Origin: a virus
Lineage: Duplodnaviria > Caudoviricetes
DNA: 54,421 nt
Direction: 5' to 3' (one strand)
Virus record (IMG/VR): IMGVR_UViG_3300049737_000325
Coordinates: 1 to 54,421 of that record
Part shown: positions 44,635 through 53,523 of the stretch, piece by piece
Position numbering within the stretch: the stretch's first letter is position 1
Layout: the number at the start of each line of letters is the position of its first letter
The notes under the pieces: generated by a model
The model's database searches: none
Told to the model about the DNA's origin: nothing
What the model saw: only the letters and a program-made list of their open reading frames with translations
Translations under genes and position numbers: made by a program

Positions 44635-45792
44635 TTATTTTGCAAGAATTGCAAACTTTTCTGCTTCGATCTGTTTGATCTTAAGTGCAACATCCGGGCC
44701 TTTAACTCCGAATTCCTTCATAACATCTTTACCATTTGTAGATGGCTTGTATTTAAAAAAGGCTTTAATCATTTTAGCATCTAATCTATTAATCTTTACA
44801 AACTCTAAAATAACCTTCTTATCAAGTCCGCTATTTTTAAATTGCTTATGTGTATCAAACACATTCGCTGGATCAAATGTCATTAAGTTCTTTAAGAATA
44901 CAACTGCACTAATTTCATCATTTGAAAATGTAGCCTTGTTCATTTCTTTCTTAAGAATATCTGTATCGTTTGCCATAAACAAATGAGTCAATTGAATTAA
45001 CCAATTATTTGTATCGATAAACTTTTCGCTAATAGGCAATGTCGGGAACATGATATTCCATAGCTTAAATTCAGAAACCATTTCTAAGTATTTCTTAGCA
45101 GACTTTGCAGTCGTTACTGATTTCTTAAATTCATCTCTGATTCTTTCTGGGCTAATACCTTCTAAACTATTATCTGTTAGAATTGCTTCTGCAGTTTCTT
45201 TTTCTAATTTACTTCCAGTTCTACCAGCAAATCTTAAGGCTCTTAATTTTCTAAGTGGATCTTCTGCAAATCTATCCGCAGCAACTCCAACCGTTCTAAT
45301 CTTTGAGTTCTTTATATCTTCTAAGCCACCTACAAGATCCACAACCTCTTCTCTACCCATGTCATAGAATAATGCATTAATAGTTAGATCTCGTCTTAGA
45401 ACGTCCTTATCTATTGTAGAGTACTCCACGGCATCAGGTCTTCGGCCTTTACCAATATCTTCTCTAAATGTTGCAACCTCAACTCCAGCTGGATCTGATG
45501 GTACGTTTACAATAACCACACCAAATTGATGTCCAACTTCTCCGGTGGTTGTGTAACCTGCATTAGTAACTATTTCAATAACTTCTGCTGGAAATGCATC
45601 TGTTGCTAAATCAAAGTCTTTTGGCTTCTTACCAAGTAGTGCATCTCGAACTGCACCTCCAACTACAAAAAGTTCTTTACCATTCTTTTTAAATAGTTTA
45701 TGCAGATCTAATATATCAGAAGGCACATTCATCTTAAGTGAATTCTTTGCCTCTGTTAAAAGTCTAAAATCTGTGAAGTTTTGTAAGTTCAT
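44635..45792 (-). CDS. cca: class II tRNA nucleotidyltransferase (CCA-adding-like)
   Basis: GGAVRD..DFD, EVATFR, RRDLTINAL, EDPLR.LRALRF, ERI..E; lacks the G[RK][RK]F poly(A) polymerase signature. Confidence 0.85.
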   Translation of the reverse strand: MNLQNFTDFRLLTEAKNSLKMNVPSDILDLHKLFKKNGKELFVVGGAVRDALLGKKPKDFDLATDAFPAEVIEIVTNAGYTTTGEVGHQFGVVIVNVPSDPAGVEVATFREDIGKGRRPDAVEYSTIDKDVLRRDLTINALFYDMGREEVVDLVGGLEDIKNSKIRTVGVAADRFAEDPLRKLRALRFAGRTGSKLEKETAEAILTDNSLEGISPERIRDEFKKSVTTAKSAKKYLEMVSEFKLWNIMFPTLPISEKFIDTNNWLIQLTHLFMANDTDILKKEMNKATFSNDEISAVVFLKNLMTFDPANVFDTHKQFKNSGLDKKVILEFVKINRLDAKMIKAFFKYKPSTNGKDVMKEFGVKGPDVALKIKQIEAEKFAILAK

Positions 45793-45886
45793 TAATTATA
45801 TATCTTGTTTATTACAGTACTAACATAATAAAAAAGCCTGAAACTAAAAAGTATCAGGCTTATTATTTTATTAAAGTTATTAACAA

Positions 45887-46627
45887 TTATCCCATTGCTG
45901 CTTCAATGTCCCATTGAATTCTTTGTAATGGATCGTCGCCTCTAAATTCTTTCTTCACCCATGCAATTAATCCAGGTTCGAACTTAGCATTTTGTGCCAT
46001 TTCAAAACCAAAGCTTGAGTCGTGTCCACCTCCATCATTATCGTATGCTAGATCAGAAATCCACTTATCATACTTCTTTTGGTTCCACTTTACTTTCTTA
46101 ATTTTTTTAGCATGAGGTCCGTCTCCTAATGTAGAAGTGGCAGCCATGTAACTTCCAGGTTTAAATACACCAAGATCTTTACCAGTCTCATCGTACTTGA
46201 TTTCTTTTCTAAATCTTCTTAATGAATATTCACCACCTTTAAGCTGTGTTCTAGGAACTACTTCTCCTTGAGATGCACCAATAGCTATTTTTCTTTCTTC
46301 AGCTTTTTTAGGATCTGTTTCAAAATGTAGATCTCTAACTGCATTTTCAAATAAAGCCGCTTCATAAATATTATCAACCATCGATTCATTAACAAACGTT
46401 GAGAATTGTGTATATAAATTAAAAGATTCCATTTCTAATTTCTTTTTTGTATTATCCTTCTTAGCCTCTTCTTCATCATCATCTATATCTGCTACTGAAA
46501 GAACGTCTCCAGAACCTACTGTAGTTGCTGTTGGTAAAACTGGGTCTCCAATACCTCCAATAGTCATACCTGGATTTAAAGATACTGCTCCTGCTGAATT
46601 TTCTTCTAATGATTTATCTTCTGACAT
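45887..46627 (-). CDS. hypothetical, putative internal head protein
   Basis: Internal FSTFVNES motif and several x-x-E cleavage-like sites; within the late block. Confidence 0.55.
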   Translation of the reverse strand: MSEDKSLEENSAGAVSLNPGMTIGGIGDPVLPTATTVGSGDVLSVADIDDDEEEAKKDNTKKKLEMESFNLYTQFSTFVNESMVDNIYEAALFENAVRDLHFETDPKKAEERKIAIGASQGEVVPRTQLKGGEYSLRRFRKEIKYDETGKDLGVFKPGSYMAATSTLGDGPHAKKIKKVKWNQKKYDKWISDLAYDNDGGGHDSSFGFEMAQNAKFEPGLIAWVKKEFRGDDPLQRIQWDIEAAMG

Positions 46628-51050: not shown

Positions 51051-52321
51051 TATCTTCCGTATTTTATGATACCCATTAGCTGGTTAATCGCAGCAAAAGT
51101 ACCTGTTAGTTTAAAGGTTTTTCCTTTAAATTTAAAGACCACGCCTTCTGTTGGGATGATCGACTCAATACCACCAATTCCCTCTAGTCTTTTTAGTTCT
51201 TTTTCAACCTTTTCAATTTGAGTAAGGTCGCCATTCTTTTTAATCTTGCCAGCTTCAGTTCTAATCTGATTATGTAATCTTGCTTTTTCAGCATCTGGAT
51301 TAGCAGCTACAAAATTAGAAGCGTTCTTTAAAACATCTGCACCTAACTCTAAAAATAGATTCTCAAAAGGTAAAATGTTTTCTTTATACTTCTTATTTCT
51401 TTGACCATCAAAATCTTTAACAGCCTTATTTTGTTCCGGTGTTAATTCCTTCTTTAATGCAGTTAACTTAAGTGTCTTCTTATCTAAGTAAGCCCATCTT
51501 AAAAGTAAACCCTCTTTATGTGCAGGGTCTAGGTCTGCAAAATTCTCTTCGATTTGGCTTCTCCACCACATCTCGTGATACATTTTAACCTCATCTTGAT
51601 CTGATAGACTATAAGTATCTCTCAGTTTATTTATTGCCTTTTCGTAATAGCCGACTCTCTCATCAAAGTTAATGTCTTTTCCTAACTTTAAAATTTGAGG
51701 GGGAATTATTGTAAACGTCTTTTGAACATCTGACTTTAATTCTTTAAGAGCTTTAACTAAATCACCAGCAACATTTTGCTTTCCAGTTTGATTACCTTCA
51801 CCATCAGTCTCTACAATACCATGAAATTGTATAACATCTCTGTCATAATAGATAACATTAGGATTTTTAGAGTAAATTAGTTCCATATTAACGAAATTCA
51901 ATCCGTTGGCGAACATTGATTGATCCTTAAGCGCTGGGAGCGCCTCTGCTAGATCTTTAGCAGCAAAGATATATGTTTCTTCAACCAGCTTTGACGCGTG
52001 GCCAGTAAACATCTTAATGATACCATTTAGGTCTAGTGGATTTATCATTTGCCCTTTATTTCTGGCAAACATTGCTTGACCATCTTTTACAGTTGCAAAT
52101 AGGTTTTGACCATCAGTCTTTTCAGTTGCAGCCTCTTCGAAATCTAACCCACCTTGTAATGAAGATTTAACAATAATCTTGAAATCTGCAAAAGTTAATG
52201 AGTGGTCATCGAAAGGGTGCATCATGTGTCCTGCTGCTCCACCTTCAAATATGAAATCCTCCAAGCTGTTCACCTGGAGTTTCTCGTTTAAAAATTCTGT
52301 AAAATTAGTGTATATCTTCAT
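51050..52321 (-). CDS. RNA/DNA ligase-fold nucleotidyltransferase-like protein
   Basis: TEKTDGQN (motif I), EGVVF (IV), FKLTG (V); EGGAAGHMMHPFD after the N-terminal MKIYTNFTEFLNE. Confidence 0.6.
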   Translation of the reverse strand: MKIYTNFTEFLNEKLQVNSLEDFIFEGGAAGHMMHPFDDHSLTFADFKIIVKSSLQGGLDFEEAATEKTDGQNLFATVKDGQAMFARNKGQMINPLDLNGIIKMFTGHASKLVEETYIFAAKDLAEALPALKDQSMFANGLNFVNMELIYSKNPNVIYYDRDVIQFHGIVETDGEGNQTGKQNVAGDLVKALKELKSDVQKTFTIIPPQILKLGKDINFDERVGYYEKAINKLRDTYSLSDQDEVKMYHEMWWRSQIEENFADLDPAHKEGLLLRWAYLDKKTLKLTALKKELTPEQNKAVKDFDGQRNKKYKENILPFENLFLELGADVLKNASNFVAANPDAEKARLHNQIRTEAGKIKKNGDLTQIEKVEKELKRLEGIGGIESIIPTEGVVFKFKGKTFKLTGTFAAINQLMGIIKYGR

Positions 52322-52329
52322 AAGAAGTC

Positions 52330-53523
52330 TTAGGCTTTTTCAGTTTCTTCAACTTCTTCTTTTATTACTGGGAAGTTCTTTCCGTTAAATTCAAATTCTT
52401 CAGCATCTTCTTCAATTGCTTTTGCTCTTGCTGCTAAAAATGCATTACCTTCATTCATTACAGACTCATTAGCCCATATCAATTCAAATGCATCTACAAT
52501 TTTTTGAGCAGTATCACTATGTCCGAATCCGTCTAAGAATAAAGCCATACCTTCAACAATACCGATACCTGACCATCCTGCAGCGTTTGCCATGAATGCT
52601 CCTTTATCATCTAATAAATTAATGATTGTCTTTTTACCAACTGGAACTGACATACCACCAAGGCTATCAAGTTCTACCATTACGGTTGTGATCTTACCTT
52701 TGATTGCTTTACTTACTGGATCTCTATAAGAGTGGAAGTTAGCATCTGTTAAAGCCTCTGCCATCATATATTTACATACTCCTAAAATAACGCCAGGTGC
52801 TGCTAACGCAGGGTGCTCCATAAAGAATTTCTCTATTGATTTATTTACTTTCTTAGCATCTCTTGCATTACCTTTACTTGGTTTGAATGCTTCATTAACT
52901 GCAGATTCGCTAACAGTAAGCGACTCGAATGCTGGTAAAAGTCCAGTTTCAGCGTAAACATCTGCCATATACCAGCTGCCATCTCTTTGGTCAAATAAAT
53001 AGACAAATTCAGCACCCCCTTTCTCAGACGCATCTCTTAAAAAATCATTTATTTTTTTAGCATCACCATCTAGTGTGGTTTTATCTCCGTAAAAGTTAAT
53101 CTTACTTGGGTCAGCTTCTAAACCAGAAGCCCCACCTTTCTTTAATAAAGCGCTAACGCCAGATCCATCTTTGTAACCCTTTTTAATAGTAGGTAGCATG
53201 TGGTCTGGATAACCGTCGTAATGCATGTATACTGCAGAAATCTTACCTCTTTTATTGATAATACCTATTTGAGAACGTGTGCCTTCTTCAATAATTGCTA
53301 TTGCTTCTGAAATTTCTGAAGCACCTAGCTTTTCATAGAATTTAGTTTTATCCTCTTCTTTAAGCTCTTTAACAGAAGTTACTCCGAATTCGCTTAATAA
53401 AGATTTAAATTGATTTGCAGCAGTGTCTCTTGCGATTGATTGTTCCTCTTCTACTTTTGCTGCTTTTACAGCTAAATTAGACTTAGCAAAGTCTTGAAAG
53501 GATTGTAGTTTGTGTGAACTCAT
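52330..53523 (-). CDS. putative internal head polyprotein with a GTRS..HYDGYP domain
   Basis: N-terminus LQSFQDF, late promoter at 53564, domains bounded by IIEE, VNEA, ANES/MNEG. Confidence 0.6.
   Translation of the reverse strand: MSSHKLQSFQDFAKSNLAVKAAKVEEEQSIARDTAANQFKSLLSEFGVTSVKELKEEDKTKFYEKLGASEISEAIAIIEEGTRSQIGIINKRGKISAVYMHYDGYPDHMLPTIKKGYKDGSGVSALLKKGGASGLEADPSKINFYGDKTTLDGDAKKINDFLRDASEKGGAEFVYLFDQRDGSWYMADVYAETGLLPAFESLTVSESAVNEAFKPSKGNARDAKKVNKSIEKFFMEHPALAAPGVILGVCKYMMAEALTDANFHSYRDPVSKAIKGKITTVMVELDSLGGMSVPVGKKTIINLLDDKGAFMANAAGWSGIGIVEGMALFLDGFGHSDTAQKIVDAFELIWANESVMNEGNAFLAARAKAIEEDAEEFEFNGKNFPVIKEEVEETEKA

Follow-up and report, generated by a model that had tools for sequence, protein, structure and literature searches.

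We analysed the IMG/VR record IMGVR_UViG_3300049737_000325 (54,421 bp; the full record is called the window below), in which all genes lie on the minus strand. Within it, we focused on a block of genes at 44635-53523, several products of which begin with a short peptide, here called the leader. The leader exists far above chance, and it is conserved, modular and lineage-specific. At the level of sequence, it shares determinants with the capsid-targeting sequence carried by phage T4's internal proteins. The reading that we favour, with moderate confidence, is that the leader-tagged late block encodes cargo for the phage head, packaged via this T4-like leader.

The window is a piece of an uncultured jumbo phage with T4-type head genes. 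It encodes a tail tube, sheath, large terminase, portal, S77 protease-scaffold and gp23-family capsid protein, all of T4 type; a DNA end protector of the gp2 kind and a late sigma factor resembling gp55 are encoded as well. By capsid protein, the nearest named phages are LR756500.1, an uncultured phage of 462 kb (52% identity), and the Prevotella Lak megaphages (37%), and a megablast search of the block against named phages gave no matches. In IMG/VR, we found 80 related loci on contigs of up to 256 kb, the largest of which (G001) is a complete genome with terminal repeats, and homologs of the tRNA nucleotidyltransferase of the block carry Tara source labels. On the basis of these loci and labels, the phage belongs to an abundant, uncultured family of marine jumbo phages. 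For the comparison with relatives, open reading frames (ORFs) with ATG starts and at least 50 aa were called on the match strand of the 80 loci and grouped by BLASTP to the window proteins. In the ortholog counts, N-termini with identical first 60 residues were merged; one locus (L001) was excluded and another (L002) lay outside the scan.

Genes and late promoters of the block

Read in the direction of transcription (minus strand), the block opens with the gene of a 397-aa protein (52330-53523), whose N-terminus is MSSHKLQSFQDF followed by KVEEE. The next gene (51050-52321) encodes a nucleotidyltransferase of 423 aa that resembles RNA ligases and whose leader, MKIYTNFTEFLNE, is coded at 52283-52321. 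It is followed by the genes of a 619-aa fusion protein (49191-51050) and of 138-aa (48756-49172), 703-aa (46642-48753) and 246-aa (45887-46627) proteins. The last gene, at 44635-45792, encodes a class-II CCA-type tRNA nucleotidyltransferase of 385 aa (the CCA enzyme), in which the leader MNLQNFTDFRLLTE, with A as the next residue, opens a 20-residue N-terminal extension.

The nonamer GATATATAA has 12 sites in the window, each on the minus (coding) strand, against 1.84 expected, and none of 100 shuffled sequences reached 12. It stands upstream of the tail tube, sheath, portal and protease genes, of the gene of a 113-aa protein located among the head genes, and of four more genes of unknown function; one site lies about 140 nt upstream of the ribonucleotide reductase small-subunit gene. 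In 1.4 Mb of related loci, 148 sites were counted on the coding strand and 2 on the opposite strand. The motif is found at most 80 nt upstream of 57/69 orthologs of the 397-aa gene, 3/5 CCA genes and 0/77 helicase genes in these loci. A conserved AT-rich motif of 8-9 nt before structural genes, together with the gp55 homolog (21686-22063, minus strand; phrog_234, E 2e-9), corresponds to late transcription of the T4 type. The T4 late consensus itself, TATAAATA, was tried as a late promoter and rejected (2 sites vs 10.7 expected), and a scan of the block for sigma-70-type promoters gave 35 hits, i.e. fewer than in shuffled sequences (44.7).

A preliminary description of this DNA had placed the block under late-type promoters. 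This holds for two GATATATAA sites on the minus strand, identical to those before structural genes and distinct from the T4 consensus: one at 53563-53571, which heads the operon 397aa-423aa-619aa-138aa-703aa-246aa, and one at 45796-45804, which ends 3 nt before the ATG of the CCA gene. The third proposed site, the variant AATATATAA (49191-49199, minus strand), lies upstream of the 138-aa gene and overlaps the stop codon of the 619-aa gene. None of 24 orthologs of the 138-aa gene has the exact GATATATAA upstream, and from its sequence the variant is uncertain as a promoter. At 45830-45860 (minus strand), a terminator-like hairpin with a U-run (-21.5 kcal/mol, z -4.4; 0/200 shuffles fold as well) closes the upstream late operon and sets it apart from the CCA gene. 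Two late transcription units are likely: 397-423-619-138-703-246, followed by CCA on its own.

Three genes have a late promoter nonamer that stops just 3-4 nt short of their ATG (18942-18953, 24470-24481 and 45793-45804), which implies leaderless or near-leaderless late mRNAs. Upstream of the window genes, no Shine-Dalgarno-like sequence can be seen, and this hints weakly at a host with Shine-Dalgarno-independent initiation, e.g. marine Bacteroidota.

The leader in the window and in related phages

The strings quoted in the preliminary description are all present at the genes to which it assigned them. Four genes on the minus strand open with a recognisable leader beside that of the 397-aa gene, which has the N-terminal string LQSFQDF: MNLQNFTDFRLLTE in the CCA enzyme, MKIYTNFTEFLNE in the 423-aa protein, MKNLEDFLKE in the 703-aa protein, and MNNIESFESF, with VNE 8 residues further on, in the 138-aa protein. 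In the 246-aa protein, the string FSTFVNE is internal (residues 78-84), and in the 619-aa protein, LHNLKTYFE belongs to the conserved ligase domain, whose motif-I lysine is residue 31, so it is no leader. The earlier statement that nearly every product starts with or contains such a segment goes too far: five block proteins open with the leader, and the other two do not. Outside the block, the description had pointed to the same start on a prohead core gene at 18941; the 113-aa protein encoded at 18600-18941 opens with MKIITTFEQFVSE and has the best leader score in the window.

The 423-aa, 113-aa, 138-aa, 397-aa and CCA proteins have [FY]xx[FY] within the first 12 residues; in the 703-aa protein, LxxF takes exactly the T4 register. 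The T4 capsid-targeting sequence is MKTYQEFIAE (bioRxiv 10.1101/2021.01.19.427310, available text). As summarised in the available part of PMC9026906, targeting depends on its positions 4 and 7 (Tyr and Phe) and processing on positions 8 and 10, and cleavage by gp21 follows L/I-x-E. In the 423-aa, 703-aa and CCA proteins, the leader runs straight into [LIV]-x-E, and the residues at the presumed cut (LNE, LKE and LTE before A, respectively) fit L/I-x-E; the corresponding residues are VSE in the 113-aa protein and VNE in the 138-aa protein, with V in place of L/I. The likeness to the T4 sequence is found in the residues that matter, and an S77 (gp21-type) protease is present. The leader co-occurs with T4-type head genes and the late promoter.

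Short patterns of this kind might arise from AT-rich composition and chance, and loose versions are frequent: F-x-x-F occurs 198 times in 16,866 residues, and [FYW]xx[FYW] is found at 9/49 window N-termini, four of these in replication genes. The loose [FYW]xx[FYW] was rejected as a criterion because it is unspecific, matching 6/8 orthologs of the unrelated gene at 40943-42172. The strict DNA pattern M-K-x4-[FY]-x2-[FY]-[hydrophobic]-x-E gave 2 matches in the window vs 0.01 expected, both at gene starts (113-aa and 423-aa), and 0/100 shuffles reached that count. Furthermore, a position matrix was trained on 56 leaders from ORFs without a homolog in the window and scored over 16,551 window positions. 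Ranked first was the N-terminus of the 113-aa protein, second a site within the protease-scaffold, third the linker between the domains of the 619-aa protein and fourth the N-terminus of the 423-aa protein. Since, in addition, reversed-pattern controls gave 0 vs 2-20 matches per genome and the motif is kept across orthologs just 30-60% identical, the explanation by chance is refuted in practice and we consider it extremely improbable.

The strict pattern had 15 matches in the complete 256-kb relative (G001), all on the coding strand, 12, 4 and 2 in three partial relatives, and 20 in LR756500.1, with 0 matches of the reversed control in each; in the four IMG/VR records, the matches were all on one strand per record. 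The strict leader was also found on 77 distinct ORFs of the related loci without a homolog in the window. A 10-residue version of the pattern gave 3 matches in T4 (control 0), namely the starts of ipII and ipIII, which are annotated internal head proteins and served as the positive control for the pattern, and that of gp61.1. The last (AF158101.6, 18966-19130) is a 54-aa hypothetical protein encoded beside the primase gene, and its start, MKTFKEFIKE, is close to the ipII/ipIII sequence.

Orthologs keep the leader although their bodies diverge. Among distinct ortholog N-termini, the leader was found in its strict form in 37/46 and in its relaxed form in 40/46 of the 423-aa group; the corresponding values were 32/52 and 41/52 for the 703-aa group (fragments included), 1/43 and 43/43 for the 397-aa group, 1/18 and 18/18 for the 138-aa group, and 0/4 and 4/4 for the CCA group. 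The 619-aa group had none (0/43 in both forms). The controls gave 1/42 in both forms for the helicase, 0/9 in both for the phosphatase, and 0/17 and 0/21 (strict) and 1/17 and 1/21 (relaxed) for two neighbouring genes. The motif search of the proteome and relatives, which the preliminary description had proposed as a check, finds the strict leader to be rare in controls (helicase 1/42, others 0) and the loose pattern to occur also at the N-termini of replication genes.

The leader sits on unrelated bodies and so behaves as a portable module. Its key residues are kept across TTT/TTC, GAA/GAG and several Leu, Ile and Val codons while other positions vary, which points to selection acting on the leader peptide, as judged from these codon patterns. 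In the complete relative, a single array of roughly 17 small genes (95-254 aa) in a row holds 10 of the 15 matches, and almost every one of these genes starts with MKH(I/V)(K/Q)LFE(E/Q)F(I/V)NE (G001:C1:193900-200300 and 177600-178100; one gene has the P-loop GGPGSGKS). The array resembles a much-expanded version of the internal-protein loci of T-even phages.

These arrays bear also on a different explanation, in which the leader is unrelated to the capsid, serves oligomerisation, another localisation, regulated proteolysis or translation initiation without a Shine-Dalgarno sequence, and was spread by recombination among hypervariable genes. The tagged genes do cluster in plastic arrays where cassette shuffling is plausible, and in the array of the complete relative, the 60 nt upstream of each tagged gene showed no late promoter. 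Moreover, with Shine-Dalgarno-like sequences not visible and three late promoters ending 3-4 nt before the ATG, the N-terminal codons could matter in themselves. The constancy of the key residues, which are kept through synonymous and non-synonymous change while other positions vary, speaks against this, as does the lack of the leader in the structural and replication proteins that were examined. Furthermore, the motif is common to the scaffold and to the 113-aa gene, which has the position of gp67/gp68, and its shape matches that of the T4 signal mapped by experiment. On balance, we regard a role of the leader outside the capsid as quite unlikely.

Enzymes and other proteins of the block

The preliminary description had recognised a tRNA nucleotidyltransferase, a HIGH nucleotidyltransferase and two proteins of the ligase fold in the block. 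Our searches bear out these assignments, with the ligase fold a probable one in the 423-aa protein. In the 423-aa protein, E67, K68, T69, D70, G71, Q72 and N73 (EKTDGQN), E392, G393 and K404 are invariant in 24 orthologs. These residues provide motif I (KxDG) and a C-terminal EG...K, which we take to be ligase motifs IV and V. The AlphaFold 2 model of the protein has a predicted local distance difference test score (pLDDT) of 83, and its leader forms a separate helix (residues 7-14) on a low-confidence linker. The top 8 structural matches are all ligases, seven of them RNA or tRNA ligases (REL1, NgrRnl, Trl1, T4 Rnl2), with modest scores (Z 7.6-6.5 over about 160-195 aligned residues, 7.6-6.8 for the best RNA ligases; best Foldseek E 8.6e-3). 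A PDB sequence search found nothing at E up to 1, and the protein has no Pfam and no PHROG matches.

The 423-aa domain has 1,771 representative homolog clusters at E 1e-3 or better. Among the best 150 homologs, 133 are longer than 470 aa and contain the domain as part of a multi-domain protein, usually at the C-terminus. The leader is at the start of 3 of these 150, all with at least 62% identity, and its motif lies in the 35 residues before the core in 2 of the 104 homologs with a recognisable core. Both of these belong to the family, and the idea that the leader is an ancestral part of the ligase-like domain was rejected.

In general, the 423-like domain forms the C-terminus of proteins of 600-1900 aa that also carry HIGH, CCA-type or P-loop kinase domains. 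In Microcystis phage Mel-JY01 (5302-7221), a HIGH domain is fused directly to a 423-like domain. Among eight long homologs that were scanned, one combines PolyA_pol and the 423-like domain with a CTP_transf_like match that is weak (E 8e-4) and does not reach the Pfam cut-off, one is a fusion of a Zeta-toxin/AAA_33 P-loop kinase with the 423-like domain, and two more start with CTP_transf_like. By domain content, proteins with the 423-like domain appear to be an unannotated multi-domain RNA-repair family. These fused homologs tie the enzymes of the block into what would be one pathway of RNA end healing and sealing.

The 619-aa protein joins an Rnl2-like ligase (residues 1 to about 380) to a HIGH nucleotidyltransferase of the NMNAT/PPAT type (about 420-600). 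Its N-terminal domain has the ligase fold (Foldseek E 3.8e-7 to T4 Rnl2, with Rnl1, Trl1 and Rnl3 also matched); the motif-I lysine K31 (KxNG) is at least 90% conserved in 21 orthologs, and E30 is invariant. The C-terminal domain matches NMNAT/PPAT structures with target template modelling (TM) scores of 0.64-0.71 and Pfam CTP_transf_like with 36 bits vs a cut-off of 21. It has a Rossmann-like fold, and in its N-terminal HIGH-type motif GRFQPFTLGH, of the form (H/T)xGH, G436 and H437 are invariant in the 21 orthologs. The 423-aa and 619-aa proteins were considered as paralogs and this was rejected, as BLASTP finds no similarity between them (best E 12).

With no N-terminal leader, the HIGH nucleotidyltransferase is not tagged in the manner of T4, and the earlier proposal is not borne out on this point. 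The interdomain linker of the 619-aa protein (49821-49892, minus strand; pLDDT <50) does contain the leader-like sequence NFNQYLL...PITE followed by ALKV. In the alignment of 21 orthologs, the linker motif reads [DN]F-x-x-[YF], followed at a distance of about 15 residues by [ILVM]-x-E-[AG] in 19/21. Cleavage in the linker could release the HIGH domain, which is speculative.

The CCA enzyme matches PolyA_pol with 113.1 bits (cut-off 23) and PolyA_pol_RNAbd with 31.8 bits (cut-off 22). Its PDB matches, CCA enzymes and the Escherichia coli poly(A) polymerase, have E values of 1e-33 to 1e-28; the E. coli poly(A) polymerase is the best of them, with CCA enzymes close behind. No tRNA genes that could account for a CCA enzyme were found in the window. 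Its alignments with solved CCA enzymes (1miv, 1vfg and 8cbm) begin at residues 27-33 of the phage protein and residues 5-9 of the solved chains, and the phage protein has about 20 extra N-terminal residues. Within these, the pattern hydrophobic-x-x-F-x-hydrophobic-hydrophobic-x-E-A is kept in 14/14 fetched homologs (71-98% identity) of the 120 closest ones listed. Given these extra residues and the absence of the leader from distant homologs of the 423-aa protein, the leader is, on sequence comparison, an add-on and not part of the enzyme domains.

A calcineurin-like metallophosphoesterase is encoded beside the CCA gene (43770-44450), and one of its four PHROG matches is phrog_8238, annotated as RNA ligase (residues 3-122); it may heal RNA ends. 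A near-identical 30-nt element, TTTTTTTATGTCAATTATTTTTCGTATATT, occurs on the minus strand at about 44594-44623 and 10839-10868. It lies upstream of a small ORF (44440-44580) that precedes the phosphoesterase gene and upstream of an exonuclease gene (9548-10810), and it is probably an early or middle promoter.

The remaining proteins of the block were compared with the databases with less result. The 397-aa protein matches phrog_1987 over residues 81-190, and its search of the ESM Atlas gave a single match, of 0.78, to a viral cluster. In its family, [FYW]xx[FYW] is present in 43/43 N-termini, mostly as SFxxF, an adjacent [LIV]xE in 1/43, and the ortholog bodies range from 140 to 872 aa. The 138-aa protein combines MNNIESFESF, a spacer of variable length and VNE before S; its orthologs have F-E-x-F in 18/18 distinct N-termini, and the listed ones have [VIL]NE[SK] after the spacer. 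The 703-aa protein, whose leader MKNLEDFLKE has the same 10-residue register as the T4 sequence MKTYQEFIAE, has one marginal PHROG match (phrog_5922, E 1.9e-4, function unknown), no Pfam matches and no usable match in the ESM Atlas. In the 246-aa protein, the internal leader-like FSTFVNE, followed by S (residues 75-84; 46376-46405, minus strand), has counterparts of the form [FY]xxF[LIV]xE in 8/11 distinct ORFs of its family.

Head genes, the fate of the tagged proteins and known systems

One genome thus encodes an S77 protease, a T4-type portal (Portal_T4, PF07230, E 3e-73) and a T4-type major capsid protein. The prohead protease-scaffold (788 aa; 16172-18538, minus strand) consists of an S77 domain (residues 27-138; PF03420, E 8e-12) fused to a very acidic scaffold with the internal leader-like repeats YVEYLAG, FADYLAE, YVEYLKE and YAEYIAS; the ortholog in the complete relative has five. 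Its residues about 375-600 contain long acidic tandem repeats (EEVEET about 7 times, VVEDDEAGEGAEE 5 times), which probably give rise, as an artefact, to the small overlapping ORF at 17197-17433. The 113-aa protein (minus strand; isoelectric point, pI, 4.1) is acidic, lies in the gp67/gp68 position between portal and protease, and has a late promoter at 18945-18953.

The gp23-family capsid protein is encoded at 14662-16050 (minus strand; PF07068, E 5.7e-44). By BLASTP, its residues 50-76 (SLNPGMNLAGMGNTSFPTGNANGSGD) align with the maturation site of T4 gp23, where the cut is preceded by FGSFLTE, a sequence of the same shape as the leader. This junction motif of about 26 residues (S/T-L/P-x-N-x-[AG]-G-[MI]-G-x3-[LF]-P...G-S-G-D) is nearly unchanged in residues 15-42 (46502-46585, minus strand) of the 246-aa block protein, which thus copies the propeptide junction of the capsid protein. 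It occurs in 2 proteins of the window and in 17 distinct segments of the related loci (e.g. L035:15443-15934), where the protein that has it, one per locus, invariably lies at the far end of the block. The motif may be a second signal for head assembly or processing.

According to the mechanism that we propose, the block would be transcribed late and its products would become head cargo. Each tagged protein would bear a short, amphipathic N-terminal leader in which aromatic residues at i and i+3 serve targeting and the following [LIV]-x-E is the cleavage site. The leaders of the cargo would co-assemble with like helices of the scaffold core, which has several copies of the motif, and the S77 (gp21-type) prohead protease would then remove the leader after the Glu. 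The mature protein would remain in the head and exit with the DNA. The tagged cargo would comprise the 423-aa RNA-ligase-like protein, the CCA-type enzyme and the 397-, 138- and 703-aa proteins, with the 246-aa and 619-aa proteins carrying the motif internally. The parts of this scheme differ in strength. The motifs suggest that the leader probably targets proteins to the prohead, and for its cleavage after the Glu the sequences leave about even chances. It is possible, and we hold it only tentatively, that active RNA-repair enzymes are retained, ejected and repair host or phage RNA at the start of infection. Co-folding of scaffold residues 200-375 with residues 1-45 of the 423-aa protein scored 0.00, which is neither for nor against binding.

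Several observations weigh against packaging as in T4. No cultured relative was found, and the best named match of the capsid protein is only 37% identical. The internal proteins of T4 are described as 'highly basic' (available text of bioRxiv 10.1101/2021.01.19.427310), and the expectation that the cargo is basic too failed: pI values are 4.9-6.7, with 8.6 for the CCA enzyme. The register is mostly 13 residues and not 10, V often replaces L/I before the Glu, and the 397-aa family has no adjacent [LIV]xE. The Glu is absent from the capsid site that aligns with the T4 maturation site, so that the true protease specificity and cut site are uncertain here. The ligase/HIGH fusion lacks an N-terminal leader (present in 0/43 orthologs), and the phosphoesterase has no leader and lies outside the late block, behind an early-type promoter element, so a packaged 'kit' would be without its end-healing step. 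Finally, late expression need not mean packaging, because the T4 record annotates RnlA both as RNA ligase and as a late-acting tail fibre attachment catalyst.

The RnlA annotation is also in line with another explanation, in which the leader does direct proteins to the prohead core, and the tagged proteins are assembly-phase scaffold accessories, size determinants or chaperones, which would disappear by degradation or expulsion when the head matures, as do gp67, gp68 and gp22 of T4. No useful enzyme activity would then be injected, and the RNA enzymes would act late in the cell or in morphogenesis. The top leader score on the gene in the gp67/gp68 position, the motif in the scaffold itself and the acidic to neutral character of the cargo, as in core proteins, agree with this, and the T4 core proteins are cut to fragments that leave the head, according to the available part of PMC9026906. 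Conversely, K68, E392, G393 and K404 of the 423-aa protein are invariant in the 24 orthologs and the CCA body is 71-98% identical among the homologs listed, which indicates selection on enzyme activity and not on bulk alone. The tagged proteins have one leader and a folded body, without the many internal cut sites of a scaffold, and one T4 enzyme of 682 aa, Alt, is annotated as particle-borne. Therefore, we consider a purely assembly-phase role unlikely, and we retain the packaging of the block products as head cargo as the preferred reading.

The tagged RNA enzymes suggest, but do not prove, that RNA-repair enzymes are injected with the DNA. A broader version, which we regard as rather doubtful, is that an abundant family of marine jumbo T4-like phages marks dozens of proteins per genome with one portable leader and so loads its heads with active RNA-repair enzymes (the ligase-like protein, the CCA enzyme and possibly a linker-released HIGH domain) as a pre-emptive counter-defence. 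Entering with the DNA, the enzymes could reseal or rebuild tRNAs cut by anticodon or acceptor-end nucleases of the host before phage gene expression, and such a protein-borne counter-defence would be of a type that has not been described so far.

Phage proteins known to be injected include an anti-restriction protein, an ADP-ribosyltransferase and RNA polymerases. Provided that the leader functions as it does in T4, the injected proteome of a large group of uncultured phages could be read from metagenomes by a sequence rule, and injected RNA-repair enzymes would make up a class of counter-defence. Another use of the leader could be to tag proteins for packaging and delivery in systems other than coliphages. 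Regardless of packaging, the 423-aa domain represents a widespread, unannotated ligase-like family. The fusions that join it to domains of the CCA, HIGH and P-loop kinase types suggest a pathway of RNA repair with several steps.

Two further genes of the window were observed away from the block. A protein with a TnsA-like endonuclease N-terminal domain (PF08722, E 4e-18) is encoded at 21207-21686, between the gp2-like and gp55-like genes. At 34429-34845, amid genes of replication and nucleotide metabolism, another 138-aa protein has a signal-peptide-like N-terminus (MKNFILSMALVVLTTLGANAQ), from which it may be a secreted or outer-membrane protein.

Among known systems, phiKZ, 201phi2-1 and SPN3US are also large phages that package many proteins, and a diverged homolog of gp21 cleaves their propeptides behind a Glu (PMC9026906, available text). 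In the same text, their motif is S/A-x-E, few other determinants are reported and a shared N-terminal leader is not mentioned. Moreover, the head genes here are of the T4 type and not of the phiKZ type.

The RNA-repair sets of phages (T4 RnlA, RnlB and PseT, and those of jumbo phages; Iyer et al. 2021, PMC7824862, available text) likewise combine RNA-ligase-fold proteins with class-II CCA-type enzymes, and fused homologs elsewhere join the ligase-like domain to CCA-type, HIGH or P-loop kinase domains. There, the enzymes are treated as intracellular, and that paper has 0 occurrences of the word 'ejected'. Here, the ligase-like and CCA enzymes are late-transcribed and leader-tagged, and the 423-aa domain has no Pfam, PHROG or PDB-sequence match. 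In reports seen mostly as abstracts, we found neither the leader outside T-even phages nor a packaged RNA ligase or CCA enzyme.

T4 Alt offers the precedent of a large enzyme (682 aa) annotated as particle-borne, with both ends processed by gp21 (PMC9026906, available text). Alt is an ADP-ribosyltransferase that targets the host RNA polymerase, whereas the enzymes here are of the RNA-repair type, and its N-terminus, MELITELFDE, differs from the leader of IPII and IPIII.

The closest comparison is with T4 IPII and IPIII themselves. The system described here, known from sequence alone, differs in its register, mostly of 13 residues vs 10, and in the number of tagged genes, dozens per genome vs three; its cargo includes proteins of 43-79 kDa and two enzymes and is not basic, and its scaffold itself carries the motif several times. 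Yet both systems have N-terminal aromatic residues three apart followed by hydrophobic-x-Glu, and in each case the same genome encodes an S77 protease, a gp20 portal and a gp23 capsid protein. The leader of either system stands on unrelated, fast-evolving bodies encoded in gene arrays, and the logic of one DNA pattern finds both sets.

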